From assembly GCA_942493245.1 (NCBI GenBank), contig OW818685.1:3452389-3516388 (forward strand): DNA of 64,000 nt, given 5' to 3'. The notes under the pieces are model-generated. The model saw nothing but the letters and a program-made list of their open reading frames with translations. It did no database searches and was not told where the DNA came from. The position numbers were made by a program, and so were the translations under genes. Shown here one piece after another: positions 323-63,641 of the stretch. Origin of the DNA: an uncultured Candidatus Sumerlaeota bacterium (GTDB taxonomy: Bacteria; Sumerlaeota; Sumerlaeia; UBA8349). Each line of letters opens with the position of its first letter. Within the stretch, counting starts at the first letter, position 1.

Positions 323-1180
323 TCAATTCATTTGGTCAGCGAAATCTCTGTTTTGCTGCTTCGCAGTCTCAAAGCCGTTCGCCCAGTGAACCTCCTGGGG
401 CGTGCGGTAGCCAAGCGACTGATGCGGCCGCTGCGTGTTGTAGAATCGGAAGTACGCCCCGAGCGCCTTGTCCGCAGCGGGCGGGTCCGCATACTCGCAC
501 AGGTACACCTCCTCGTACTTCACGCTGCGCCACAGGCGTTCCGTGAAGATGTTGTCGAAGCAGCGGCCCCGCCCGTCCATGCTGATCCGGATGCCGCTCT
601 CCTCCAGCCGTTTCGTGAACGCCCCGCTGGTGAACTGCACGCCCTGGTCGGTGTTGAAAATATCGGGACACCCCAGACGCAGCGCCTCGTCGAGAGTCTC
701 GACGCAAAACGAGGTGTCGAGCGAGTTCGAGAGCCGCCACGCCAGCACGTAACGGCTGAACCAGTCGATCACCGCCGTCAGGTAGAGAAAACCGCCCGCC
801 AGGCCGATGTACGTGATGTCGGACGCCCAGACCTGGTTGGGGCGCACGATCGGCAGATCCCGCAGCAAATACGGGTACTTCTTGTGCTGCGGCGCGCTGT
901 GGCTCAGGCCCTTGCGCGGCGCCACGGCCCGCAACCCCATCACCCGCATGAGCCGCTCGACCCGCTTGTGGTTGATCGGCTGGCCGAGGGTGCGCGAGAG
1001 GTGCGCGGTCATCTTGGGCGAACCGTAGAACGGAAAGCAGGTGTAGATCTCGTCGATCCGGCGCATCAGTTCCAACTCCTGAGGGTCGCGTTCCACCGGC
1101 TGGTAGTAGTAGGTCGAGCGCGGCAGACCGAGCAGGGCGCACTGGCGCGAAATGGCCAGTTCCCCGTGCCCCGGCTCCAC
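323..1180 (-). CDS. IS3-family transposase OrfB (DDE integrase core); open frame extends upstream to 1222
   Basis: 285 aa containing the rve/integrase-core region (..WASDITYIGLAGGFLYLTAVIDWFSRYVLAWRLS..., ..NTDQGVQFTS..., ..YNTQRPHQSLGYRTPQE..). The frame is open from the stop at 1223-1225 that overlaps the A-run. Confidence 0.85.
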   Translation of the reverse strand: MEPGHGELAISRQCALLGLPRSTYYYQPVERDPQELELMRRIDEIYTCFPFYGSPKMTAHLSRTLGQPINHKRVERLMRVMGLRAVAPRKGLSHSAPQHKKYPYLLRDLPIVRPNQVWASDITYIGLAGGFLYLTAVIDWFSRYVLAWRLSNSLDTSFCVETLDEALRLGCPDIFNTDQGVQFTSGAFTKRLEESGIRISMDGRGRCFDNIFTERLWRSVKYEEVYLCEYADPPAADKALGAYFRFYNTQRPHQSLGYRTPQEVHWANGFETAKQQNRDFADQMN

Positions 1181-1202
1181 CAGCGCCTGCGCCTGGCCGG
1201 GG

Positions 1203-1493
1203 TCAAGCGCCGCACTTTTTTTTTAGCCAGTCGAGTTCCACCTTGAGCCGTCCGATCTGCTCGTAGAGTTGGCTGGTCTCTTCCGCCTCCTTTCCCGGCC
1301 GCTTGCGCCGGTCGGCGAAAGCCCCGCTCAGGGATTCCACCGCCTGCTTCTTCCACATCACCACCTGGTGGGGATGGATGCCGCGCTCGCTGGCAATCTC
1401 ATTGATCGTCCGCTTGCCGCGAATTGCCTCCAGTGCCACCTCCGCCTTGAAAGACGCACTGAAACGTCGCCTCTTTTCGCTCATTTTCCCCAC
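1203..1493 (-). CDS. IS3-family transposase OrfA (HTH DNA-binding)
   Basis: 96 aa, MGKMSEKRRRFSASFKAEVALEAIRGKRTINEIASERGIHPHQVVMWKKQ..., a classic IS3 OrfA helix-turn-helix with a leucine-zipper-like C-terminus; ends WLKKKCGA* directly after the A9 tract. Confidence 0.85.
   Translation of the reverse strand: MGKMSEKRRRFSASFKAEVALEAIRGKRTINEIASERGIHPHQVVMWKKQAVESLSGAFADRRKRPGKEAEETSQLYEQIGRLKVELDWLKKKCGA
1213..1226 (-). promoter_or_regulatory. A9 homopolymer recoding site at the orfA/orfB junction (transcriptional slippage or +1 frameshift candidate)
   Basis: Minus-strand sequence CTGGCT-A9-GTGCGG (plus-strand T9 at 1216-1224). OrfB lies in the +1 frame relative to OrfA, so canonical -1 ribosomal frameshifting would not join them; an mRNA with one fewer A gives an in-frame OrfAB fusion. 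Confidence 0.55.
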
Positions 1494-1620
1494 TCCTTCC
1501 TGGACACAAGCCTAACAGAATACCACCTTAAAGGCCTGTCCAGTTTTCGGGGGGAACTTCAACTACACGGACCTCAACCTGGGCGAATATACTAAATATT
1601 TAAGGGTCTCAAATTCAATC

Positions 1621-2073
1621 ATGCCGTCTATCAAAATCTCTAAGGACTGGAGAGAATTCCTGAGAACATACCCGGAATTCCGAAGCGCGTACGAGGAGGA
1701 GAAGAACTATTCCCCCGTTCTCCTCGAAAGAATGGGATTTGAATTCTCGGTCCATACCCAGCGCTGGGAAGACGCAGCGTTATCTTGCGTTAGTGGCGAC
1801 ATCAGTTCCAATAAGAGAATGTCGGAGGTAAGTAACTGGGAAGAAGAGGTGTATTGTCTGCGCCAGATGGGCGCACCGGGTCTCGCCTGCCTGGCGGGCC
1901 GCTCGTACCAGCGCGCGCTCGATTCTCAACGGCAGGGCCAATCGCCCACCAATAAATTCCAACGCTACCTGCGATACCCGGGTTATCTGCCCTTATTTGC
2001 TACACGGGAAATCAAGTATCGTTCTGGAATTAAACTTAAAAACGAACAGAATTTACAGGATTTACAGAAATAA
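1621..2073 (+). CDS. hypothetical protein (possible gene remnant in an AT-rich island next to the IS3)
   Basis: 150-aa ORF; the first half is AT-rich and codes a plausible polypeptide, the second half is GC-rich. No recognisable motif. Confidence 0.25.
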   Translation: MPSIKISKDWREFLRTYPEFRSAYEEEKNYSPVLLERMGFEFSVHTQRWEDAALSCVSGDISSNKRMSEVSNWEEEVYCLRQMGAPGLACLAGRSYQRALDSQRQGQSPTNKFQRYLRYPGYLPLFATREIKYRSGIKLKNEQNLQDLQK

Positions 2074-2209
2074 TACGATCCAAAAATCGCAACCCACAAT
2101 CTTGTCAATTTTTTGTATTTTTATCTCTGAATCTGGACGAATGTATTGGGCGGACACGCAGGTCCGCCCCTACATTCTGGAATTTTCAAAAAAACCCTGA
2201 ACAAAAAGA

Positions 2210-3793
2210 TCACCACCCGAACGTCACCAGACTCCGTCCGGGTAAAGTGTATTGAAAAAACTTGTCACCGGTCTGTACCTGGAACACCTTCTCCGCTTCG
2301 TTCCGATTGAACACGGCGAGGGTGGTCTTCCCCTCCGGCGCGGCGAAGGCCACCACATCCAGATCCTTATTCGGACCGTCCCCTTCGACAGAAGCGGCCA
2401 CGCGGCGCGAACCGGGCTGCGCCGCGCGGGACATTTGGGCCATTCCGTAGAACTCGCGCTCGAATTTGACCTCCTGCCAGGTGTCCGACCGGACCGTCAC
2501 CACCCCGATCCCGGCCGAATCGTCGCGCAGGGTCGGACCGTACTTCTGGTCGAGCGCCAGATTCCACTCCTGGATCGCCTGACACCCGTTCTGCGGCCCA
2601 CCCATCCAGCTCATCGCCATGCGCGAGCGCACATTGCCCCACCAGCCGCCGCGTTTCTTTCCCCACGCCGAGATTTCGGTGCAGATGATCATCTTGTCGG
2701 GGAATTTCTGATGGATCGCCTGATAGGCCTTCTTCATCGCCTCGGCGCCGCCGGAGTAACAGTGCCACGCGCTCCCGGCGATATAGCGCCCCGCCTCGGG
2801 GTCCTGGAAAATCTGCGTCACGCTGGCCACCGGGTCCATCTTGGCGTCGCCACCGAGTACCTTGCGGTCGCCGGGGTGCAGTTCCCAGTTGTGGTCGTGG
2901 ACAAAGATTTTCGTCTTGAGCCCCTTGGCCGCGAGTTTCGGCCCGAGCAGTCGGACCAAGCGGATCTGGTCCGCCTCGTCCAGGCGCATGCAGGGGTAGC
3001 GCAACAGGTCCGTCTGCGGTTCGTTCTGGAGCGTGACGGCCCAGATTTCCACCCCGGCGGCCTGGTACTGTTCGATGAACTTCACGAAATAGTCGGCGTA
3101 CACCTCGAAGCACTCGGGCTTGAGTTTGTTGACACCCCCGGCGGCTTTTTCCGCCTCGGTGATCCCCACCAGTTTCCCGTGGGTCTTCATCCAGGCGGGC
3201 GCGCTCCACGGAGACCCCATGATGCGAATGGTCGGGTTCAACTTCAACGCGTCCTTCAACGCCGGAATGATCTGTTTCCGGTCGTGGTCGATCGAGAACT
3301 TGCTCAGATCGGGGGACGGTTCATCGCAATAGGTGTAGTACGCCGGAGCGGCGGTGAAGTCCGACGCTCCCATCGGAATGCGGATGAAGCTGAACCCCGC
3401 GCCCTCGGTGGGAGAGAACAACCGCTTCATCGTGTACTCGTAGAGCGTCGGATTCTTCTCCTTCAGGTTCATGAACAGGTCCGCAGAGGCGTCGGTCATC
3501 GCCGCGCCGTAACCGAACATTTCCTGTTCCGCCGCGTTGCGGTTCACCGAGATTTTCAGAGGAACTCCCGGGTCCGCCGGAAGGAGCGGCGTGGAACCGG
3601 CACGCAACAAGGTGTATTCGTCATCCTGATGGACGTCGTACTTGCCCGCGCCGCCCCCGATCCTGGCCTCCTTCGCGTCGCCATCCGGGAAACGCGTGAG
3701 CAACGTCGCCACCTCCGCGCTCCACGCGGGCACCAGGAACATTCCCACTAAAAGGCACAAAAAACTCATCCGTTGAATCGAACGCATCGCCAC
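2210..3793 (-). CDS. glycoside hydrolase family 30 (glucosylceramidase-like), secreted
   Basis: 527 aa with an N-terminal signal peptide (MSFLCLLVGMFLVPAWSA) and GH30-like stretches including ..IMGSPWSAPAWMK.. and ..VTLQNEP... Confidence 0.8.
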   Translation of the reverse strand: MAMRSIQRMSFLCLLVGMFLVPAWSAEVATLLTRFPDGDAKEARIGGGAGKYDVHQDDEYTLLRAGSTPLLPADPGVPLKISVNRNAAEQEMFGYGAAMTDASADLFMNLKEKNPTLYEYTMKRLFSPTEGAGFSFIRIPMGASDFTAAPAYYTYCDEPSPDLSKFSIDHDRKQIIPALKDALKLNPTIRIMGSPWSAPAWMKTHGKLVGITEAEKAAGGVNKLKPECFEVYADYFVKFIEQYQAAGVEIWAVTLQNEPQTDLLRYPCMRLDEADQIRLVRLLGPKLAAKGLKTKIFVHDHNWELHPGDRKVLGGDAKMDPVASVTQIFQDPEAGRYIAGSAWHCYSGGAEAMKKAYQAIHQKFPDKMIICTEISAWGKKRGGWWGNVRSRMAMSWMGGPQNGCQAIQEWNLALDQKYGPTLRDDSAGIGVVTVRSDTWQEVKFEREFYGMAQMSRAAQPGSRRVAASVEGDGPNKDLDVVAFAAPEGKTTLAVFNRNEAEKVFQVQTGDKFFQYTLPGRSLVTFGW

Positions 3794-11606: not shown

Positions 11607-12239
11607 ATGCCCCCCATGCTTTCCTCCGTTGATCTCACCCTTCTGATTCCCGGTATCCTGCTTTGCCTGATGGGCTGGACGCTCTACTGGATCAGCCTGA
11701 ACCTGACCGGCGGCCTCACAGGCTGCGTGGCTGGCGTGGCTGCCGTTTATCTGGCGGCGGGACTCCTGAAAGTAGATCCCAACACCATGGTCTGGCTGGT
11801 TCCCCTGGGCGGCGTGTGTGGCTTAGCCCTGGGGATTTTCTTCATGCGGGGCCTCCACCGTTTTCTCTTCTTCTTTGCCGGTTCCGCCCTGGGGCTGGCC
11901 GTCGGGGACCAAGCCTTCGGGTGGGCCACGCTCCATATCGAATCCGCCCAACTCAACCCCCTCCTCTGGCGGGCGGGGTGCGCAATTCTCTGTTCGCTGG
12001 CGGGCGGGATCATCCTCCTGTGGGGGTCGCGCTGGCTGGTCACGCTGGCCACTGCCGTTGCGGGTTCGCTTCTGATCGTCCTGTCCGTGAACGATCCGTT
12101 GTTTCTACTCGCGCTCGCTCCCCTGATTCCCACCTCTTTCCTTTTTCAGATGGGGGTGCTCCGCCGCCTCCTGCCCGACCCGGCGCGGCGAACCGAAATT
12201 GAAGAAGAATACGAAGAATATCCCGAAAACCGCCGTTGA
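11607..12239 (+). CDS. hypothetical integral membrane protein
   Basis: Multiple hydrophobic helices and an acidic C-terminal tail. Start chosen at the first in-frame ATG (11607); the ORF is open from a GTG at 11550. Confidence 0.5.
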   Translation: MPPMLSSVDLTLLIPGILLCLMGWTLYWISLNLTGGLTGCVAGVAAVYLAAGLLKVDPNTMVWLVPLGGVCGLALGIFFMRGLHRFLFFFAGSALGLAVGDQAFGWATLHIESAQLNPLLWRAGCAILCSLAGGIILLWGSRWLVTLATAVAGSLLIVLSVNDPLFLLALAPLIPTSFLFQMGVLRRLLPDPARRTEIEEEYEEYPENRR

Positions 12240-12449
12240 GCGCCAACGGCGCGATCTTTACCAGCCTGGGGCATCACCCAACGAAAACCGACTTGTTTAT
12301 TTCAGTAAGGGCTGAGAGCCACGTTCTGTTCAGCCGTTTAGCCCCTTTTCATAGTTCGGGCCTTCAGCCCTTATAAAGAAGGGACATCTAACCTGGGGCG
12401 ACGCTGCGCTTGCCCCAGGCTGGTATCAATCCGCGCCGTTGGCGCTCAA
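12236..12449. repeat. MITE-like element or long structured hairpin bounded by about 37-bp near-perfect inverted repeats
   Basis: TTGAGCGCCAACGGCGCGATCTTTACCAGCCTGGGGC at 12236-12272 and its reverse complement GCCCCAGGCTGGTATCAATCCGCGCCGTTGGCGCTCAA at 12412-12449 (about 35 of 37 matching), with further nested palindromes inside. The left arm overlaps the stop codon of the upstream gene. Confidence 0.5.
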
Positions 12450-12480
12450 CTGCGGTTTTTATAGACCGTGTTCTTCCGGA

Positions 12481-25986: not shown

Positions 25987-27288
25987 TCAGGAAACATCCG
26001 ATTCCAGCGACCAGGCCGAATCCATGTGGATGTGGCCGGGAGAGAAGCGCGACTTTTCCGAAGCCGAGACGGGGACCACGGTGAACCGGATGCCTTCGAT
26101 ACGGTCCACCACCTTCCCCTGGTAATCGAACGGAACCACATCGAGCATGTAACTTCCCGCCAGAAAGGGGTTCCGGGTCTCGATCCGGATGCAGTAATCC
26201 CGCCCCGGCACTCCATCGAAGTAGGAAGTCTCCGTGTGTGTACTGAGCATCGTGGACAACCGCACTCCGTCGGAATTGCGCAAAATGACCACCAGACCAA
26301 ACCGCCGGTCGGCGTTGGAAACCCGGTAGGAAAGGCGCAACGAGAACGGCTCGTCCACCAGGAGCGTATCAGTCCGCACGCCCTGCCGGTTGAGAATTTC
26401 GATGCGGAACACCTCGAACTCGGCCGGGTAAGTCTGGTGCATCGCAGGGGCGATCTCGACGTTGGGCGCCTGGTTGGGCAGCGTGGTCAAGTATTCATCC
26501 ACCACGTCCGCCGCCTCGCCCGCCCGCACCAGCTGTCCCCCTTTCAGGAGCAACGCCTTGCTGCACAACCGGCGGATGGCCTGCATGTTGTGCGAGATGA
26601 ACAGGACTGTCCGGCCATGCCCCACCACGTCCTGGATTTTCCCGAGGCACTTGGCCTGAAACTGGGCATCCCCCACAGCCAGAACCTCGTCCACCATCAA
26701 AATTTCGGACTCCAGGTGCGCCGCCACGGCAAAGGCCAGCCGCACATACATCCCGCTCGAGAACCGCTTGACCGGGGTGTCCAGAAAACGCTCGACCTCT
26801 GAGAACGCGACAATCTCGTCGAATTTCCGGGCGATCTCCGACTTGCGCATCCCCAGAATCGCCCCATTGAGGTAGATGTTCTCACGTCCGGTCAACTCGG
26901 GGTGGAATCCCGTCCCCACTTCGAGCAAAGACCGGACCCGTCCCCGGATCACGGCGCGCCCCTCGGTGGGCCAGGTCACCCGCGACAGAACCTTCATCAG
27001 CGTGGATTTCCCCGCGCCGTTCTGCCCGATGATCCCGAGCACTTCCCCCTTGCGGACCTCGAAACTTACGTCCCGCAATGCCCACAGAATCTCATCGTCA
27101 CCCGTCTTTTTCTCCGAAGCCACGCCCGGCTCTCCAACGGCCGGTGGCCGCACCCACTCCTTGAGACGGCGGCCCGCCTGACGCGGAAGATCCATCACCA
27201 TTTCGCGAAACGAACGCGTCAAATCCACATGGTGGCCCAGGTGGTATTGCTTGCTCAGGTGTTCGGCGGTGATGGCCAGGTCGCTCAT
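25987..27288 (-). CDS. polysaccharide export ABC transporter ATP-binding protein (Wzt/TagH-like) with a C-terminal extra domain
   Basis: Walker A GQNGAGKST, signature FSSGMYVRLAFA, Walker B ILMVDEVLAVGD; about 170 additional C-terminal residues, as in Wzt proteins with a glycan-binding domain. Confidence 0.85.
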   Translation of the reverse strand: MSDLAITAEHLSKQYHLGHHVDLTRSFREMVMDLPRQAGRRLKEWVRPPAVGEPGVASEKKTGDDEILWALRDVSFEVRKGEVLGIIGQNGAGKSTLMKVLSRVTWPTEGRAVIRGRVRSLLEVGTGFHPELTGRENIYLNGAILGMRKSEIARKFDEIVAFSEVERFLDTPVKRFSSGMYVRLAFAVAAHLESEILMVDEVLAVGDAQFQAKCLGKIQDVVGHGRTVLFISHNMQAIRRLCSKALLLKGGQLVRAGEAADVVDEYLTTLPNQAPNVEIAPAMHQTYPAEFEVFRIEILNRQGVRTDTLLVDEPFSLRLSYRVSNADRRFGLVVILRNSDGVRLSTMLSTHTETSYFDGVPGRDYCIRIETRNPFLAGSYMLDVVPFDYQGKVVDRIEGIRFTVVPVSASEKSRFSPGHIHMDSAWSLESDVS

Positions 27289-27306: not shown

Positions 27307-28179
27307 TCAGATAATATCGGCAAACGTGCGTTCCATTTTCTTGAAATAAAAAAGGCCGGTCACCAGAATCGCCACCGCAACGGGAGTTCCGACGGCCAGA
27401 AGAAACCAGGGCGGGTCGGCCGTGTGTCCCGCCGCGCGAATCGTCTCCGAGAACAGACACCAGCGGAATCCCTCCACCACCCCCGCCATCGGGTTGAGCG
27501 CGTACACGTAGCGAAGCCAGCCATACTCGCGCAACGCGCTGAACGGGAAAATCACCGTGCAGTACATCCAGATCTGCATGATGAAGGGAAGCAGATACCG
27601 GATGTCCCGGTAGCGCACCTGCAGGGCGGAAAAGAGGAACCCCGTTCCCAGCGCCACGATAAAAGCGACGGCCATCAGGACCGGCAGAAACAACGCCATG
27701 ACCCCCACGGGCGTTCCAAAATACCCGAGCAGCGGCCCCAGCAGGACGAACGCGATCGCGAAGTCGAGCAGGCTCGCCAGGCAGGGCACCGTCGGAATAA
27801 TCACGCGCGGGAAATACACTTTGGTCAAAAAAGAGGTATTCGAGAGCAGACTGCCGCTGGACATGGAGAGCGAGTTGGCAAAATACGTCCACGGCAACAG
27901 GTTGACGTAATAAAAAACAGGACCGGGCAGTCCCGACGTGGAGAGGTTGGCCACCTTCTTGAACACAAAGGAAAACACCACCATCTGCAGGAAAGGAACC
28001 AGCACCGCCCACGCCACCCCCAGCAGCGTCTGGCGGTACTTCACCTTCAGGTCGCGCCACGTCAGGAAGAAAAGCAACTCGCCGTACTGCCACAGTTCTT
28101 TCCAGTCCACGCTCAACAGCCCACGCGGCGGCTCGACAATCAGGACCGGTTCTTCGATTTCCCGCGGCAACGATGGCAC
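27307..28179 (-). CDS. ABC-2 type polysaccharide export permease (Wzm/TagG-like)
   Basis: Six predicted transmembrane segments, an ABC-2 permease pattern; 18-bp gap to the downstream ATPase gene. Confidence 0.8.
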   Translation of the reverse strand: MPSLPREIEEPVLIVEPPRGLLSVDWKELWQYGELLFFLTWRDLKVKYRQTLLGVAWAVLVPFLQMVVFSFVFKKVANLSTSGLPGPVFYYVNLLPWTYFANSLSMSSGSLLSNTSFLTKVYFPRVIIPTVPCLASLLDFAIAFVLLGPLLGYFGTPVGVMALFLPVLMAVAFIVALGTGFLFSALQVRYRDIRYLLPFIMQIWMYCTVIFPFSALREYGWLRYVYALNPMAGVVEGFRWCLFSETIRAAGHTADPPWFLLAVGTPVAVAILVTGLFYFKKMERTFADII

Positions 28180-28387
28180 TCGGACGCTCTCACCCTCTGC
28201 AATTTTTGTTGGCTGGAATCGGTTTCACGGTGCCACCGGTATCCTTGACAGCGCGGTTGTTCCTTTTCTCTTCCACCGACTCGATTAGACTCCTCATCCC
28301 CGGCAACACCGTTCTGAGAGTACCTTTCCCCCCTGTCCCTGTCCAGACAATTCCATGTCGGGCAAAACCGAGAAAAGACGGTGTTAC

Positions 28388-30387
28388 CTGGTGGCGCAGC
28401 GAAGCCGCAACCCATAAAACCGCGAAAGGCGCGAAAAACGCGAAATTCGGCTTTCCCGTTTTTCCGTACTACATCTCGCAGAACCAACGCAAACCACGAT
28501 GATCTCATGAACAGAAAGAATGGAATGTGTAAACCCCTTAACGCAAAGACGCCAAGACGCAAGGACGCAGAGGGTTCCGGATGGCGAGGACGGCGCGATT
28601 CAAAACTCGAACCGAAAATAGGGATGGAATGTGCGGACGACAAAAACTGAAAATCCATGAACCTAAAAACCGCAGTTGACTCTTGCTCTCGTTCTGCAAG
28701 TGTAGCAAACTGAGTGCATGAACGAGAAAAATCTCTTCCCAACCCCTCACCCATTGGGTGACTCCAATGCGCCCGAGATCGAATCTCTGGTGGTGGACAC
28801 TTTTGGCGGCCGGGTCCACGTGGAGTGGGCGCCCCAGGCGGCCGTGACGCCTCTGGGGCAATTGCCGTTCTTCATCGAGTTCCTCAAGACGGCCCATCTT
28901 TTTGATGCCTGGGTTCAGGATTGCCCGCTGGAGTACCACAGCCCCAATGCCCCGGCCAAGCGCGACATTCTGGGGACGACTCTGCTGTGTCTGCTGGCGG
29001 GTCACACGCGCTACGCTCACATCGCGGCGATTCGGGCCGATGGGGTGAATCCGGAATTGCTCGGCATGTCGAAGGTGGCCAGCGAGGACTCGGTGCGCCG
29101 GGCGTTTCAGGCCGTGGATGGGGAGGAGTGCGCGCTCTGGCAAACCCATCACTTGCGGCGCTGTTACGAGGCTTTGTTGTGCGAGCCGTGGATTCTGGAT
29201 CTCGACACGACCGTCAAGCCGCTCTACGGCCGTCAGGAAGGGGCCGTGAAGGGCTACAACCCGCAGAAACCGGGCCGTCCCTCGCACACGTACCACACCT
29301 ACTTTCTGGCCAACCTGCGCCTGGTGCTCGACGTCGAGGTGCAGTCGGGCAACCGGACGGCGGCGAAGTACACGAGCCCCTCGTTCTTCTCCTTTCTCGA
29401 CACCCTGTCCCCCGAACAGCGGCCGGTCTTCGTGCGCGGCGACTGTGCCTTCGGCAACGACGCGGTCATGCGCGAGTGCGAGAAACGGGGACAGCCTTAC
29501 TTGTTCAAGTTGCGCCAGACTCAGAAAGTACGGGGGCTGATCGAGAAACTCTTTGCCCGCGAGGTGTGGGAGGACGCGGGCCAGGGCTGGGAGGGCGTGG
29601 AGTCGAAGTTACGCCTGAGCGGCTGGGAGCGCGAGCGCAAGGCCGTCGTCCTGCGTCGGCGCCTGAAAGGCGATCTGCTTTTGGCCAACCGCCCACAACC
29701 AGGACAGTTGGAACTGGCTTTTGTCGAGACACTCGAGACGGTGGGCCCGTACGAGTACGCCGTACTGGTGACGGACCTCGCGGGCGAAATCCTCACGTTG
29801 GCGCAGCACTACCGGGACCGGGCGGACTGCGAGAACGTCTTCGATGAGTTGAAGAACCAGTGGGGCTGGGGCGGGTTCACGAGTCGGGACCAGAAACGCT
29901 GCCAGATCATGGCGCGCCACACGGCTCTGGTCTACAACTGGTGGTCGCTGTTCGCGCGCCTGGCCCTGCCCGACAAACACCACGAGGCGCAGACCAGCCG
30001 CCCGCTTCTTCTGCACGCCGTGGGCAAGCAGACGCAACACGCCGGTCAGACCACGCTGACCCTGACGAGCCTGCATGCCGAGTCGGCCTCCATCCGCAAA
30101 GTTTTGCGCGGTTTGACGGGCTTTTTCCAGCACCTTCGCAAGGCTGCGGAGCAGTTGGATTGGACTGAGCGCTGGCGGCTGATTCTGAGTCGCGCCTTCG
30201 TCGTCTTTCTGAAAGGAAGACTCCTCGGCGTACCGGGAAAACCCGCCCTCGGATGCACTTGAGCGACAAACACCGGCGCCCAAGGCCCTTGGGCAGGGTT
30301 CAACTGCTGTTTTTAGGATGAATCTTTGCATCTCTGCACCTTTGCGACTTTGCGTTAAAATTGGTTGCGGCTTTGCTGCGCCAGGAA
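28388..30387 (+). mobile_element. insertion sequence, IS1380/IS4-like, with long imperfect terminal inverted repeats
   Basis: Single DDE transposase ORF flanked by CCTGGTGGCGCAGCGAAGCCGCAACC... (28388 onward) and its reverse complement ...GGTTGCGGCTTTGCTGCGCCAGG (ending about 30387). A second IR-like copy TTAACGCAAAGACGC sits at about 28538, and the inner segment CCTAAAAACCGCAGTTGAC (28662) matches the reverse complement of 30300-30320. The left end is about 200 bp longer than the right. Confidence 0.75.
28718..30262 (+). CDS. DDE transposase (IS1380/IS4-like)
   Basis: 514 aa; ..KGYNPQKPGRPSHTYHTYF.., ..VFVRGDCAFGNDAVM.., and C-terminal ..YRDRADCENVFDELKNQWGWGGF.. (Y-R-E-K signature region). 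Confidence 0.8.
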   Translation: MNEKNLFPTPHPLGDSNAPEIESLVVDTFGGRVHVEWAPQAAVTPLGQLPFFIEFLKTAHLFDAWVQDCPLEYHSPNAPAKRDILGTTLLCLLAGHTRYAHIAAIRADGVNPELLGMSKVASEDSVRRAFQAVDGEECALWQTHHLRRCYEALLCEPWILDLDTTVKPLYGRQEGAVKGYNPQKPGRPSHTYHTYFLANLRLVLDVEVQSGNRTAAKYTSPSFFSFLDTLSPEQRPVFVRGDCAFGNDAVMRECEKRGQPYLFKLRQTQKVRGLIEKLFAREVWEDAGQGWEGVESKLRLSGWERERKAVVLRRRLKGDLLLANRPQPGQLELAFVETLETVGPYEYAVLVTDLAGEILTLAQHYRDRADCENVFDELKNQWGWGGFTSRDQKRCQIMARHTALVYNWWSLFARLALPDKHHEAQTSRPLLLHAVGKQTQHAGQTTLTLTSLHAESASIRKVLRGLTGFFQHLRKAAEQLDWTERWRLILSRAFVVFLKGRLLGVPGKPALGCT

Positions 30388-30640
30388 GAAAGTGTTCTCC
30401 CTGGGACCGCTTTCTCCCCATAAATAGGGCCTTTCTGGGAGGCCGGGCGTCTCGCCCGCCTGAAAGAAAACCGGACACAGGCGTTCAACTGTGGTCCAAA
30501 ATCTACGCAAGCGACAGTGATTCTGCGAGAGAGTCGTACAAACGATCACCCTCCCCCGAAACCATTCGGAAGAGGGTGATTTAGAACTTCGAAAAATTAC
30601 GTTCCCGACCTTCGAAAACCGCGCCGGGCGCGGTTCCCTG

Positions 30641-31429
30641 TCAGTTCGAGACCGACGCTTTTCTACTCGCTCCGGACTTCGACCCGGAATCGGCCGCTTT
30701 TTCCGCCTTTGCGGCGGCCTTCGGCTCAGCTGGCGCCGCGAGGGCGCCCTTCGCGTCATCGTCCGCGGATTTGGGAGCGCTGTCGGCCTTGGCGGCTTTT
30801 TCGGCCGCCGGTTTAGCCTCGTCGGCAACCGGTTTCTTTTCACCCTTGTCCACCGCCGGGGTCTCTCCAATTCCGGCAAAAGGATCACTCTTATTGCCCG
30901 AGGTCGTAGAATTCATCTTAGGCCCACGCACCTTGACTTTATTGCCCCCCTTCTCCGTCTGGGTCATGGTAATCTCTTCCCCGGCCATGGTCATCCCCTT
31001 CTGCAACACGACAGGACTTCCCGTAAGAACCGTTCTTTTCTCCTCCACATAGGAACGCAATTCCAGACAAGTGGCCTTGACGTCCTTGCTGCGAACCTTC
31101 ACACGATGCCCCGAGACCGTTGATTTGGCGATCAGACACTTTTTGGCCGCGTCAAAGATCAACAGGTCGCACTGCAAGTCCAGATCCTGCGAGACCAGAA
31201 TCACATTATCCGTCATTTGAAATTGCGAGACTTCACCCTTTTCATCGGTCTCGATGTTCAATTCCCCATCCGCCTTCAAATCCTTCAAACCGGGCAACAG
31301 TTTTTCCGGACTGAAAGACGCCGCGCCCCCTTCTTCATCCTGCGCCCAAACTGTCACAGGAGCCAATCCAGCCGAAAACAGACAACCGGCAATCAACACT
31401 CCCCCACAGAACTCCGCGAATCGTTTCAT
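30641..31429 (-). CDS. LptA/OstA-like periplasmic LPS transport protein with an Ala/Lys-rich C-terminal tail
   Basis: Signal peptide, OstA-like beta-jellyroll region, low-complexity C-terminus; sits downstream of the lptC-like gene. Confidence 0.55.
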   Translation of the reverse strand: MKRFAEFCGGVLIAGCLFSAGLAPVTVWAQDEEGGAASFSPEKLLPGLKDLKADGELNIETDEKGEVSQFQMTDNVILVSQDLDLQCDLLIFDAAKKCLIAKSTVSGHRVKVRSKDVKATCLELRSYVEEKRTVLTGSPVVLQKGMTMAGEEITMTQTEKGGNKVKVRGPKMNSTTSGNKSDPFAGIGETPAVDKGEKKPVADEAKPAAEKAAKADSAPKSADDDAKGALAAPAEPKAAAKAEKAADSGSKSGASRKASVSN

Positions 31430-47772: not shown

Positions 47773-47953
47773 AAGCCGCGATTGAGGTCCCTTCACCTTA
47801 AACATCGTAATGCCTATTTTTTCAACCCTGAGCCACACGAAAAAGCGATTTCGTGTGGCTCTTTTTCAAAAGTATGGAATAAACGGCGACAAAGTCGGGT
47901 TGATCGTTTTGAATGTTTTCTTACATTCGGGTCTAAACGCAATTCCACTTTTC

Positions 47954-48073
47954 GTCATTCCCGCGAAAGCGGGAACCCAGATCCGGAACGTTCTGGTTGA
48001 TTGCGTTTCTCCTGAGTTTCCCCCCTGTTTTCCCGTTCGCGCCCCTCTGGGTCCCCGCGTTCGCGGGGATGAC
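47954..48073. repeat. REP-like palindromic repeat pair in inverted orientation
   Basis: GTCATTCCCGCGAAAGCGGGAACCCAG (47954-47980) and CTGGGTCCCCGCGTTCGCGGGGATGAC (48047-48073); each is itself a hairpin and the two are near reverse complements of one another, about 65 bp apart. Confidence 0.5.
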
Positions 48074-48203
48074 AAAAGGGAGACGAATGCCGGGAGGTTT
48101 GAGTCGCAAAATCGGAGAAAGATACACCATCAATGCTCACCAGAAAAAGAGCCATTCAACGACTTTTGCAAAAGGCTCGTGTGGCTCTTTTTTTGGAGGC
48201 CTT

Positions 48204-58624: not shown

Positions 58625-58800
58625 CCCGTATTTTGAAACCCCACTCTTTTCTCACAGAAAATTCGCCCTTGACTCCCCACCCTGCCGGGGCATAGGTTTG
58701 AGCCAGCAGAACGAGTACTATTATACCGGGGGCCACCAGACGGGACATCCGGGGTTTTGTTGTGTGTTCCGAACCGGCTCGGCTCAGAAGAGAGGACTGT

Positions 58801-60312
58801 ATGAAACGTATGTGTATCGCCAGTTGTTGCGCCATTCTGTTGTTGTTCGTGTGTGGACTTTCCATTCAGGCCGCCGACGAGAAAAAGTACGAGGCCAACT
58901 GGGAATCGCTCGACAAGCGGCCCATGCCCGAGTGGTACCCGGACGCCAAGTTCGGGATTTTCATCCACTGGGGCACTTACTCCGTGCCCAGCTGGGGCGA
59001 GCGTGACCAGTACGCCGAGTGGTACTGGAATTATGCGTTCGAAGCCGACGGCAAGACTTTGAAAAACAACACGTGGGGAAACTTCCACAAGAAGAACTAC
59101 GGCGCGGACTTTCCGTATCAGAACTTTGCGGCGATGTTCAAGGCCGAGCTGTTCAACCCGGAGGAATGGGCCGACATCTTCCAGCGCTCGGGCGCAAAAT
59201 ATATCGCCCTGACCTCGAAACACCACGAAGGTTTCTGCCTCTGGCCCAACGAACAGGCCAGCAAGACCTGGGGCCGTCCCTGGAACAGCGTCGAGACCGG
59301 TCCGCATCGCGACCTCGCGGGCGACCTGACTCAGGCCGTGCGGGCCAAGGGACTCAAGATGGGCTTCTACTACTCCCTCTACGAGTGGTTCAACCCCCTC
59401 TGGCTCACCGACAAGAAGCGCTATGTGGACGAACACATGACGCCTCAGTTCAAAGATCTCGTCACAAAATACAAGCCCTCGATCATCTTCAGCGACGGCG
59501 AGTGGGACCTGCCCTCGTCCGAGTGGAAAAGCCCGGAACTCCTGGCGTGGCTCTTCAACGAATCGCCCTGCCGCGACGAAGTGGTGGTGGACGACCGCTG
59601 GGGCAAGGACACCCGCCACAAACACGGCAGCTACTACACGACCGAGTACGGCGCGGGGCTGCCCGACGCCAAGAATTTCTGGGAGGAAAACCGCGGCATG
59701 GGCTTCTCCTACGGCTTCAACCGCAACGAGCCGCTGAGCAACTACCGCACGGGCCACGAGCTGGTCTGGATGTTCGCCGACCTGGTGAGCCGCGGCGGCA
59801 ACCTCCTGCTCAACATCGGGCCGACCGGCGACGGGCGCATCCCGGTCATCATGCAGGACCGCCTGCTCTACCTGGGCGACTGGCTCAAGGTCAACGGCGA
59901 GGCGATCTACGGCACCCGCACGTGGAAAAAAACCAATCAGTGGACCCCGGGCGAAATGCCCAAACAGGAACACGGCGAGTTCAAGGTGAAGTACTCGATC
60001 CTGGAGACGGCGGGCCTGAAACCGCGCGCGGACAAGGATGGGAAACAATGGGCCGTCAAGAACGTCTTCTTCACCTTCAAGCCAAAGGAAAAAACCCTCT
60101 TCGCGATCACGCCCGGATGGCCGAAGAACGAACTCGCCCTCGAAGGAGTGAAAGCCACCCCGGACAAAACCGTTGTGACGCTGCTCGGGCGCGACGGCGA
60201 GATGAAGTGGGAAACCAGGGACGGCAACCTGGTCATTCAGGTTCCCCCGCTGACCGTGGATGAACTCCCCTGCCGCGACGCCTTCGCGTTCAAGATCACG
60301 AACGTGGAATAA
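58801..60312 (+). CDS. alpha-L-fucosidase (GH29), secreted
   Basis: Signal peptide from the ATG at 58801 (MKRMCIASCCAILLLFVCGLSIQA); GH29 motifs ..FGIFIHWGTYSVP.., ..YIALTSKHHEGFCLWP.. Confidence 0.85.
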   Translation: MKRMCIASCCAILLLFVCGLSIQAADEKKYEANWESLDKRPMPEWYPDAKFGIFIHWGTYSVPSWGERDQYAEWYWNYAFEADGKTLKNNTWGNFHKKNYGADFPYQNFAAMFKAELFNPEEWADIFQRSGAKYIALTSKHHEGFCLWPNEQASKTWGRPWNSVETGPHRDLAGDLTQAVRAKGLKMGFYYSLYEWFNPLWLTDKKRYVDEHMTPQFKDLVTKYKPSIIFSDGEWDLPSSEWKSPELLAWLFNESPCRDEVVVDDRWGKDTRHKHGSYYTTEYGAGLPDAKNFWEENRGMGFSYGFNRNEPLSNYRTGHELVWMFADLVSRGGNLLLNIGPTGDGRIPVIMQDRLLYLGDWLKVNGEAIYGTRTWKKTNQWTPGEMPKQEHGEFKVKYSILETAGLKPRADKDGKQWAVKNVFFTFKPKEKTLFAITPGWPKNELALEGVKATPDKTVVTLLGRDGEMKWETRDGNLVIQVPPLTVDELPCRDAFAFKITNVE

Positions 60313-60344
60313 ACGAAAGAGGCGAACGTCAATACCTTCGGAAC

Positions 60345-60394
60345 AAAAGATCTACGGCCCCACCCGCAATCGCGGATGGGGCCGTAGATCTTTT
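60345..60394. terminator. bidirectional rho-independent terminator between convergent genes
   Basis: AAAAGATCTACGGCCCCA-loop-TGGGGCCGTAGATCTTTT: a perfect 18-bp stem with an A-run on one side and a T-run on the other. Confidence 0.65.
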
Positions 60395-63026: not shown

Positions 63027-63641
63027 TCACTCTCCCGTCCCGTTCCCCGCATTCCCTTCTTTCACCCGCAGTTCCCAGCGATGCAGCGCCAGATATTCAG
63101 GGCCTTCCGGCTTTAGATCGCTGCTGTAAAGCGTCACATGATCCACCAGCCCCAACCCGACCGACGCATCGCGGTGGCTTTCCACCACATCCATCAGCGC
63201 CGACGCGCCCCGCAACGCTTTGATGCGCGCCAGCGTCAGATGCGGGTGGAACTCCCGCATCTCCGGCTCGAATCCCGCCCGCACCAACGCATCGTCCAGA
63301 CGCGCAGCCAGCTGCACGATCTGACGCTTCCCCTGGTTCGCCCCCACCCACAACACCTTCGGCTCGCGCGGATTCGGAAACACGCCAAGCCGTTCCACGC
63401 TCAGGTCAAACGCTGGAAAACTCCCGATGCCCGCCTCGACACACCGGATAATCTCCGGCACGCGCCCCGCGTCCACCGCGCCCAGAAACTTCATCGTGAT
63501 GTGCAACTGGGACGCATCCACCCACTTCGGGAAACTCTGGGTGAAAAGCGTCCCCTTCTGCAAACGTCCGATCAGATCGAGCGCCCGCCTCTGTTGCTCT
63601 TCCACCAGATCCACCGCCAGAAACAATCGCAGTATCCCCAT
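63027..63641 (-). CDS. thpR: RNA 2',3'-cyclic phosphodiesterase (2H phosphoesterase, LigT/ThpR family)
   Basis: Two H-x-T/S-x motifs, HITMKFLG and HPHLTLAR, at the characteristic spacing. Confidence 0.8.
   Translation of the reverse strand: MGILRLFLAVDLVEEQQRRALDLIGRLQKGTLFTQSFPKWVDASQLHITMKFLGAVDAGRVPEIIRCVEAGIGSFPAFDLSVERLGVFPNPREPKVLWVGANQGKRQIVQLAARLDDALVRAGFEPEMREFHPHLTLARIKALRGASALMDVVESHRDASVGLGLVDHVTLYSSDLKPEGPEYLALHRWELRVKEGNAGNGTGE

Follow-up and report, generated by a model that had tools for sequence, protein, structure and literature searches.

An IS1380-family insertion sequence within repeats of a widespread family, probably nested themselves, between an lptA-like gene and wzm of an uncultured Sumerlaeota bacterium

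The window analyzed here is a stretch of 64,000 nucleotides from the genome of an uncultured "Candidatus Sumerlaeota" bacterium (contig OW818685.1, positions 3,452,389 to 3,516,388), and the subject of this work is the spacer that separates, within it, the gene of an LptA-like protein from the ABC-2 permease gene wzm. An original prediction, made from the window alone, had placed there a single insertion sequence (IS) of about 2 kb with asymmetric, internally duplicated ends. Taken as a whole, the evidence is best explained by three mobile elements nested in this spacer, and we consider this explanation likely. The innermost is a single IS1380-family IS of 1,656 bp (28662-30317, plus strand), which sits in the loop of the long hairpin of a repeat unit on the minus strand (unit 1). 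This unit would in turn lie inside a second unit of the same repeat family on the plus strand (unit 2). The two-level statement, that the IS is located inside foreign repeat DNA, is secure, while the three-level nesting (IS in unit 1, unit 1 in unit 2) is probable. The IS itself is ordinary, and it is the host repeat family that is the interesting part. Its 23-nt motif leads to a widespread and apparently uncatalogued family of mobile elements, whose protein is annotated as "hypothetical" or "ArsR regulator."

A repeat finder returned three collinear pairs of inverted repeats around the transposase gene, an outer one (28392-28426 / 30349-30383; 35 nt, 80%), a middle one (28538-28572 / 30324-30358; 35 nt, 77%), which contains TTAACGCAAAGACGC, and an inner one (28662-28686 / 30293-30317). 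Only the last corresponds to the ends of the IS. The left terminal repeat, CCTAAAAACCGCAGTTGACTCTTGC (28662-28686, plus strand), pairs over 25 nt and with 84% complementarity with the right one (30293-30317, minus strand; reverse complement CCTAAAAACAGCAGTTGAACCCTGC), i.e., CCTAAAAACCGCAGTTGA and CCTAAAAACAGCAGTTGA match at 21 of 25 positions, and the outermost bases are CCTAAAAACC.. on the left and ..GGTTTTTAGG on the right. Immediately outside, ATGAA is found at both 28657-28661 and 30318-30322, an identical pair that fits the target pattern N-T-[CG]-A-N. The borders were confirmed by copies located elsewhere. There are nine genomes with multi-copy relatives, in which the copies within one genome are alike over 1,625 to 1,712 bp only, and the points where same-genome copies cease to be alike were used to set the family end motif. 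Sixteen copies with cleanly readable junctions, from four genomes, are bounded by CCTAAA[AT][AC]C[GC]GCAGTTG, and 13 of them are flanked on both sides by an identical 5-bp target following the pattern N-T-[CG]-A-N (e.g., TTCAA, TTGAA, GTCAT, ATGAC, ATCAA, and TTGAT). Closer still are the two readable members, on other contigs, of the 90% cluster of the window transposase. One of them (L211) has 95% nucleotide identity to the window, confined to 28658-30322, with TTGAA on both sides and unrelated flanks. The other (L210) has 91% nucleotide identity over 28662-30321, and its contig opens at the first C of the IS. No trace of 28387-28661 or 30323-30385 was found at either locus, and therefore the IS comprises 28662-30317 and nothing else. 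The source-genome contig codes for at least eight distinct variants of the 514-aa transposase, each at least 90% identical, so the IS is multi-copy there and is probably active, or was recently.

Two observations made along the way concern this group of IS. In a Nitrospirota metagenome-assembled genome (MAG) with two copies of a relative (L004 and L005), the 5-bp flanks are swapped between the copies. TTCAT, on the left of L004, recurs on the right of L005, and ATAAT, on the left of L005, recurs reverse-complemented on the right of L004, the signature of an inversion via recombination between two IS copies. In the window itself, an element of about 240 bp (12222-12464) has inverted ends of about 45 nt whose outermost bases, CCCGAAAACCGCCGTTGAGCGCC and AAAAACCGCAGTTGAGCGCC, resemble the IS ends. 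A homologue is found in another context at about 905-1256 of a related locus (L082), flanked by TTGAA and CTGAA; no clean target duplication is visible in the window copy. Judging from its ends, this element probably derives, in miniature form, from an IS of this group.

The transposase gene (28718-30262, plus strand) codes for 514 aa and appears to be intact, and relatives align over residues 1 to 514. On this point, an IS with an intact transposase between the lptA-like gene and wzm, the original prediction was right. The protein matches the Pfam domains DDE_Tnp_1_4 (E 2.9e-23; 82.2 bits against a cut-off of 34.7) and DDE_Tnp_1 (3e-17), and its best NCBIfam match is the IS1380 equivalog, with a score (148.8 bits) under the cut-off of 180. 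D161/D163, D242, and the motif Y365-x2-R368-x3-E372-x6-K379 are invariant across 12 sequences that are 52 to 96% identical, and D161/D163, D242, and E372 are by motif the predicted catalytic DDE residues. According to its ISfinder description, the IS1380 family comprises elements of about 1.55 to 2.0 kb with one open reading frame (ORF), ends starting with CC, and a 4- to 5-bp duplication. The window IS has the single ORF, the length, the CC ends, and the 5-bp duplication of the family, together with the signature Y-(2)-R-(3)-E-(6)-K known from IS4-like enzymes, and it resembles ISEcp1, IS1380, and IS1678 in its single DDE ORF, its size of 1,656 bp, its CCT ends, and its 5-bp duplication. However, annotated IS1380 transposases on plasmids were only 23 to 25% identical over >80% of the length (tblastn), the NCBIfam score stays below the cut-off, and the IS falls in a separate environmental subgroup with its own end motif (CCTAAAAACCGCAGTTGA) and the target N-T-[CG]-A-N. 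When genomes were scanned with the transposase, >583 loci with related genes emerged, in MAGs that belong to many phyla, and the closest was ca. 60% identical. By these sequence traits, the element is a distant but typical and quite ordinary member of the IS1380 family, in a subgroup that is mostly environmental. The initial label "IS1380/IS4-like" has to be reduced to its first half. Elements of the IS4 family generate target duplications of 8 to 13 bp, and membership in it is not supported here, as the duplication is 5 bp and the scores obtained with IS4 models are far under the respective cut-offs (NCBIfam IS4_2, 16.2 bits versus 152).

The sequence that surrounds the IS can be recognized from copies elsewhere. 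The 20-mer GGCGCAGCRAAGCCGCAACC is present in at least 120 metagenome contigs, often near contig ends and in unrelated contexts. Its extended start consensus is CCTGGCGCAGCGAAGCCGCAACCAAA, and on both sides there are lineage-specific short-period A/C-rich repeats, e.g., AACCACAGATGNACACAGAT or CCGCGAAAGACGCGAAAAGCG. Units of the family open with CCTGGCGCAGCRAAGCCGCAACC and close with a small palindrome plus GATNGTAGTAC, with hairpins adjoining; the start follows the pattern C[CT]T[GA]GCGC[AG]GC[AG][AT]AGCCGCAACC, which is matched by both cores of the window. The end box, a partial palindrome of 20 to 25 nt and then GAT[ACG]GTAGTAC, is located on the strand of the core, 100 to 400 nt downstream. 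Altogether, we delimited 22 distinct units of 105 to 413 nt, in which start core, variable middle, palindrome, and GATAGTAGTAC always appear in that order, with no terminal inverted repeat between start and end. In one metagenome (Ga0315280), an identical unit of 122 nt is found in >25 contigs with sharp borders and different flanks, which is the behavior of a mobile element that has been spreading recently. The start core can form a small hairpin, with the sole variable position of the 20-mer in the loop, and its stems covary (GCAGC-GAA-GCCGC, GCGGC-ATA-GCCGC, and GCGGCC-TAT-GGCCGC).

The sites occupied by the family are within or beside hairpins of short-period (8 to 11 nt) A/C-rich repeats, at the top of the arms, and the right flank opens with AC-R-R-A. 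The 8-mer that precedes CCT resembles the 8-mer that begins with the final AC of GTAGTAC (e.g., ACGGATTG / ACGGATTG, ACAGATGG / ACAGATGG, and ACTGATTT / ACAGATTT). A simple 8-bp target duplication was considered and rejected, because even around identical copies of an element the two 8-mers usually show at least one mismatch; an element that entered at the boundary of two neighboring repeats of the array fits this better than duplication by a staggered cut. The arrays that adjoin the units vary in copy number. At one locus seen in two strains (L100 and L104), the strains differ by one extra 10-nt repeat unit (ACAGATGAAC) immediately ahead of the 122-nt unit, and at another (L089) a stretch of 33 nt ahead of the unit (1-33) recurs 32 nt after it (about 190-222). 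No gene family was consistently adjacent to the short units across the 120 metagenome loci listed, and the core is absent from the 83 loci at which relatives of the IS or of wzm were found. A scan of viral contigs gave one chance match to the core, inside a coding sequence. Literature searches gave no match to the core on either strand, and the end-box string turned up in five papers, none of them related. A role of the core as sigma-54 promoter, attC site, dif site, or IS110-type target was rejected upon inspection of spacing or consensus.

We built profile models from copies outside the window (111 sequences for the start and 22 for the end) and searched the whole 64 kb with them. The matches show that the sequence outside the IS carries both the start and the end signatures of the family. 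The start model matched 30360-30386 on the minus strand (E 1.2e-8) and 28392-28417 on the plus strand (E 2.8e-6). With the end model, no stretch of the 64 kb scored better than 30498-30537 (plus strand, E 0.009), which has the expected orientation and position, and the third best is 28466-28503 on the minus strand (E 0.45). These four places are precisely the ones that the nested arrangement requires. Unit 1, on the minus strand, is split by the IS. Its 5' portion (30323-30385) consists of the start core CCTGGCGCAGCAAAGCCGCAACC (30360-30385) and a hairpin arm (30324-30358), and its 3' portion (28466-28661) of the other arm (28538-28572) and the end box (28466-28510; palindrome plus GATGTAGTAC). 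Without the IS and one ATGAA, it amounts to 259 nt that read core, hairpin (30358-30324 / 28572-28538), spacer, and TTTGCGTTGGTTCTGCGAGAT-GTAGTAC, and the IS occupies the loop of this hairpin. Unit 1 closes with TTTGCGTTGGTTCTGCGAGATGTAGTAC, an individually weak end box (E 0.45), with ACGGAAAAACGGGAAAG..TTTCGCGTTTTTCGCG downstream. Past its end come a short-period repeat hairpin (28465-28413) and then a core facing the opposite way (28412-28387). The latter is the start core of unit 2, CCTGGTGGCGCAGCGAAGCCGCAACC (28387-28412, plus strand), so that the 5' portion of this unit spans 28387-28465, with short-period hairpin arms at 28433-28445 and 28452-28464. Its 3' portion (30386-30545, plus strand) closes in a degenerate end box, ..GATTCTGCGAGAGAGTCGTAC (30497-30545), also individually weak (E 0.009), and is followed by ACAAACG and the terminator hairpin of the lptA-like gene. 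An end box finishing at 30545 is where a unit started at 28387 should end if it had unit 1 inside, and hence we delimit a unit 2 of ca. 240 nt. The same nested layout is present in a contig from an unrelated sample (L106), with a weak end box (E 0.018) where the outer unit predicts one.

The succession of events can be proposed as follows. Unit 2, a non-autonomous element of about 240 nt on the plus strand, would have arrived first, next to the hairpin that terminates the lptA-like gene. Unit 1, from the same family and on the minus strand, would then have entered unit 2 some 50 nt past its start, in the hairpin region. Finally, the IS would have entered the hairpin loop of unit 1 by means of its DDE transposase, duplicating the 5-bp target ATGAA. 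Both this order and the mobilization of the units by the protein of ca. 520 aa found in full-length members of the family (see below) are what we infer from the arrangement.

The 2-kb IS first envisaged, extending from 28388 to 30387, with long imperfect terminal repeats and a left end about 200 bp longer by internal duplication or cargo, has in its favor that the repeats 28392-28426 / 30349-30383 and 28538-28572 / 30324-30358 are real and not random. The outer 20-nt repeat has two sites in the 64 kb, both here, where shuffled sequences predict 0.01 matches. Long imperfect inverted repeats (35, 35, and 25 nt) do flank the transposase, as had been claimed, and an alignment of the two ends supports all three pairs, but only the innermost pair belongs to the IS. 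The IS ends are symmetric; the impression of asymmetry comes from a compact right side of 95 bp opposed to three blocks on the left spaced by ca. 110 and 90 bp. Directly outside 28388 and 30387, where a target duplication had been expected, TGTTA faces AAGAA, with no direct repeat. Besides, the multi-copy relatives are all of 1.62 to 1.71 kb and end at the inner motif, the outer repeat motif is present in at least 120 unrelated contigs without this IS, and the copies L211 and L210, devoid of the outer sequence, refute a 2-kb IS, to which we give practically no credence. The asymmetric, duplicated ends were an artefact of reading two older nested repeats into the IS. Because the units have opposite orientations, the conserved 23 nt with which each begins (CCTGGCGCAGCRAAGCCGCAACC) are found facing one another, at 28387 and at 30385, and together with the hairpin arms of unit 1 they mimic long, asymmetric, and duplicated IS ends. 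The additional repeat copy noticed at about 28538 does exist, with its partner at 30324-30358, although as a hairpin arm of unit 1 and not as part of the IS. The suspicion of a nested partial duplication or cargo was correct regarding the nesting, but the material is neither duplicated IS nor cargo, consisting of repeat DNA that is unrelated to the IS and was there before it. Taking the IS borders from the outermost inverted repeat would here have been 340 bp wrong and would have created a fictitious IS variant with "asymmetric" ends. Such ends can be simulated by repeats nested in an intergenic landing pad, and only copies from elsewhere resolve them.

A simpler arrangement would have only two levels, with the IS in a single miniature element of about 340 bp (28387-28661 plus 30323-30385) in which the facing 23-nt cores act as terminal inverted repeats and the box at 30497-30545 is coincidental. 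The succession of core (plus), hairpin, reversed end box, hairpin, and core (minus) does recur, in L106 (230 bp) and in L196/L174, and the end-box match at 30498-30537 has an E value of only 0.009. However, that match is the best of the 64 kb, lies in the right orientation at the position that nesting predicts, and ends at the lptA terminator; L106 also has its weak end box at the place predicted for the outer unit, and in most members of the family a single core is paired with a single end box, with no inverted repeat. We regard the two-level arrangement as unlikely. Much more improbable is that the outer sequence is native, non-mobile spacer, made up of terminators and structural or regulatory hairpins similar to repetitive extragenic palindromic (REP) sequences that happen to resemble repeats elsewhere. 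It is certainly intergenic and beside a terminator, and in some phyla, Planctomycetes and Verrucomicrobia among them, genomes commonly contain short palindromes tagged with GTAG, which can function as RNA elements (PMC3733652). Yet the sequence is missing from the corresponding spacer of a colinear relative (L208) and from L082 and L083, its start core is identical at 22 of 23 positions to that of ORF-carrying 1.7-kb elements from unrelated samples, and there are no other copies in the 64 kb, as would be seen with sporadic insertions, unlike a general signal. Rfam gave nothing at an E of 1 or below within 28100-30700. Several facts weigh against the nested arrangement that we prefer. Both end boxes in the window are weak, and that of unit 2 has GTCGTAC instead of GTAGTAC, which makes three-level nesting less secure than the location of the IS in foreign repeat DNA. 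Reconstructed unit 1 folds overall no better than shuffled sequence (z = -0.53). The L208 spacer is diverged and contains a different small repeat, so it is not the exact empty site that a close strain would provide; the comparison with empty sites confirmed the absence of the outer sequence from L208, L082, and L083 but did not give the exact junction. Lastly, the mobility of the repeat family is deduced from copy number and boundary patterns, no transposition event having been observed.

The start core in the window is identical at 22 of 23 positions to the upstream end of 1.7-kb elements from unrelated samples that carry an ORF. These full-length versions were found at six loci (L173, L101, and L204 to L207), of which four are independent (L205 and L206 are duplicates of L204), and each has one ORF of ca. 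520 codons. The clearest case is L173, a contig of 1,727 nt with the core at one extremity, the GTAGTAC box at the other, and one ORF of 520 aa (121-1683). L101 has a homologue of 535 aa between the same signals (652-2259, minus strand). In L204 and L207, which were retrieved via the protein, about 100 nt separate the core from the ATG, and about 40 nt separate the stop codon from the end box. A further site, represented by nine loci (L212), has the same layout with variant signals, namely, a 25-nt core with a longer stem (GCGGCC-TAT-GGCCGC) and the end box GGATTGTAGTAC. Mobile elements also cluster at L207 (4907-6328), where the copy of the 1.7-kb element is directly trailed by an IS with a DDE_Tnp_1 transposase.

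The protein of ca. 520 aa has no Pfam or NCBIfam match except for a weak C-terminal winged helix; Y141, Y143, Y240, H153, and D251 are invariant residues. A word-index search provided at least 4,534 homologues of about 512 to 541 aa, mostly on contigs of 1.7 to 2.3 kb and with no name beyond "hypothetical protein," and profile searching, done exhaustively, gave 8,198 clusters at 50% identity with an E of 1e-3 or below. Homologues on plasmids (24 to 30% identity) are annotated as hypothetical or ArsR regulator; next to the one on a Paraburkholderia plasmid (30% identical) the start or end motifs were not recognizable. A profile search of PDB sequences with the family gave no match, and RNase H-like, HUH, RuvC, serine-recombinase, and tyrosine-recombinase folds were not found. 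Likeness to Rep_trans rolling-circle initiators and relaxases (RepD/RepSTK1 type, with a TBP-like fold) is below any safe threshold, with no Foldseek match at E <0.03 and no sequence similarity. Our proposal, put forward tentatively and a little short of what we would call likely, is that the two window repeats are non-autonomous members of a very large, unannotated IS-like family and that the protein represents a new transposase class. As part of the same proposal, the protein would possibly be a single-strand nickase with a TBP/Rep_trans-like fold and a winged helix, full-length members would insert between adjacent units of short-period arrays in hairpin arms, and the hairpins of short-period repeats in which these genomes abound could be targets or footprints of the protein. 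The ends and targets of the family suggest a transposition chemistry unlike that of DDE, HUH, serine, or tyrosine enzymes, the classes known so far. If true, this would add one more transposase class and would explain the abundance of short-period repeat hairpins and the many orphan contigs of 1.7 to 2 kb in environmental assemblies.

Among known systems, the host repeats are reminiscent of IS200/IS605 elements, their miniature derivatives, and REP sequences with their associated transposases (REP/RAYT). They have in common with these the absence of terminal inverted repeats and of a clean target duplication, a small hairpin near each end, and hairpins in the neighborhood. However, in the ca. 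520-aa protein of the full-length versions neither Pfam nor NCBIfam recognizes Y1/HUH, TnpB, or anything else that would relate it to IS200/IS605, and the flanks are short-period repeat arrays instead of a fixed tetranucleotide. The same difference separates them from REP/RAYT, as the gene of the four full-length versions and of L212 codes for a protein without a Y1_Tnp/HUH match. By analogy, the family would resemble the single-strand, hairpin-guided logic of both systems, with an unrelated protein. IS1397 is known to insert into palindromic units, and IS110-family elements insert into REPs. The situation in the window is similar to these and other cases of IS inserted into bacterial interspersed mosaic elements (REP/BIME) or miniature inverted-repeat transposable elements (MITEs), in that an element occupies the loop of a repeat hairpin and the outer inverted repeats derive from the host repeat. 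Here, though, landing in a hairpin may merely reflect the 5-bp target ATGAA, and other copies of the IS (relatives, L211, and L210) showed no preference for such repeats. In having GTAG beside the end palindrome, the host repeats are also similar to GTAG-tagged REPs (PMC3733652).

On the left of the complex are wzm (27307-28179) and the gene of Wzt (25987-27288), and on the right is the lptA-like gene (30641-31429), all three on the minus strand. The complex lies downstream of the stop codon of the lptA-like gene and not upstream of its 3' region, as had been stated. Its right border is the native terminator-like hairpin of this gene (30545-30580, minus strand; a 16-nt inverted repeat, 88%). 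The most informative relative is L208 (LptA 54% identical), which is colinear with 37535-22750 of the window except for the lptA-wzm spacer, of 444 bp in L208 versus 2,274 bp in the window. Its gene order is the lipid A acyltransferase region, lptA, and then wzm-wzt-glycosyltransferase-oxidoreductase. An equivalent hairpin with a T-run follows lptA in L208, and the end of unit 2 abuts the window counterpart at 30545-30580.

Similarity to the window upstream of wzm reaches 28361 in L208 and 28368 in L082, and the last match in L083 is at about 28352. The region 28180-28368 (minus strand), conserved with L082 and L208, is therefore native and untouched and probably contains the promoter and leader of wzm. 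The insertion had been suspected of altering the expression of cell-envelope polysaccharide genes. With the ca. 190 bp upstream of wzm that are conserved in L082 and L208 left untouched, an effect on wzm expression is unlikely; we infer that the complex is neutral for it, with little or no effect on the polysaccharide genes. The transposase is directed away from wzm, toward the 3' end of the convergent lptA-like gene, whose terminator hairpin is kept with a shortened T-run, and a promoter scan of the complex detected no sigma-70-like site. An insertion that leaves the wzm upstream region intact gives no grounds for supposing that the expression of envelope polysaccharides has changed.

In L082 and L083 (Wzm 93 to 95% identical), the region upstream of wzm is different, with a fucosidase gene in the former and a LigT-like gene region in the latter. 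Both are found in the window 30 to 35 kb away (58649-60386 corresponds to 3250-4991 of L082, and 63064-63641 to 7425-8002 of L083). The breakpoints of both relatives are 20 to 35 bp from the edge of the repeat complex. Since L208 keeps the lptA-wzm order of the window, the rearrangements belong to L082 and L083 and not to the window. An inversion of ca. 32 kb with respect to L082, caused by these elements, was considered and dropped for the same reason, as it is the window that has the arrangement in common with L208. The fucosidase-wzm spacer of L082 (5000-5300) is rich in hairpins and repeat-like (e.g., GAGACGGGATAACAGGAT..ATCCCGTTATCCCGTCT and GTTGCATTCAA..TTGAATGCAAC) but unrelated to the window complex. 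Judging by these comparisons, the lptA-wzm spacer evidently acts as a landing pad. Another small repeat was detected in the window at 47953-48075, an element of ca. 120 bp with inverted ends of about 28 nt, GTCATTCCCGCGAAAGCGGGAACCCAGA and TCTGGGTCCCCGCGTTCGCGGGGATGAC, and a small hairpin at each end. A copy with 76% identity is located in the lptA-wzm spacer of L208 (7022-7144).

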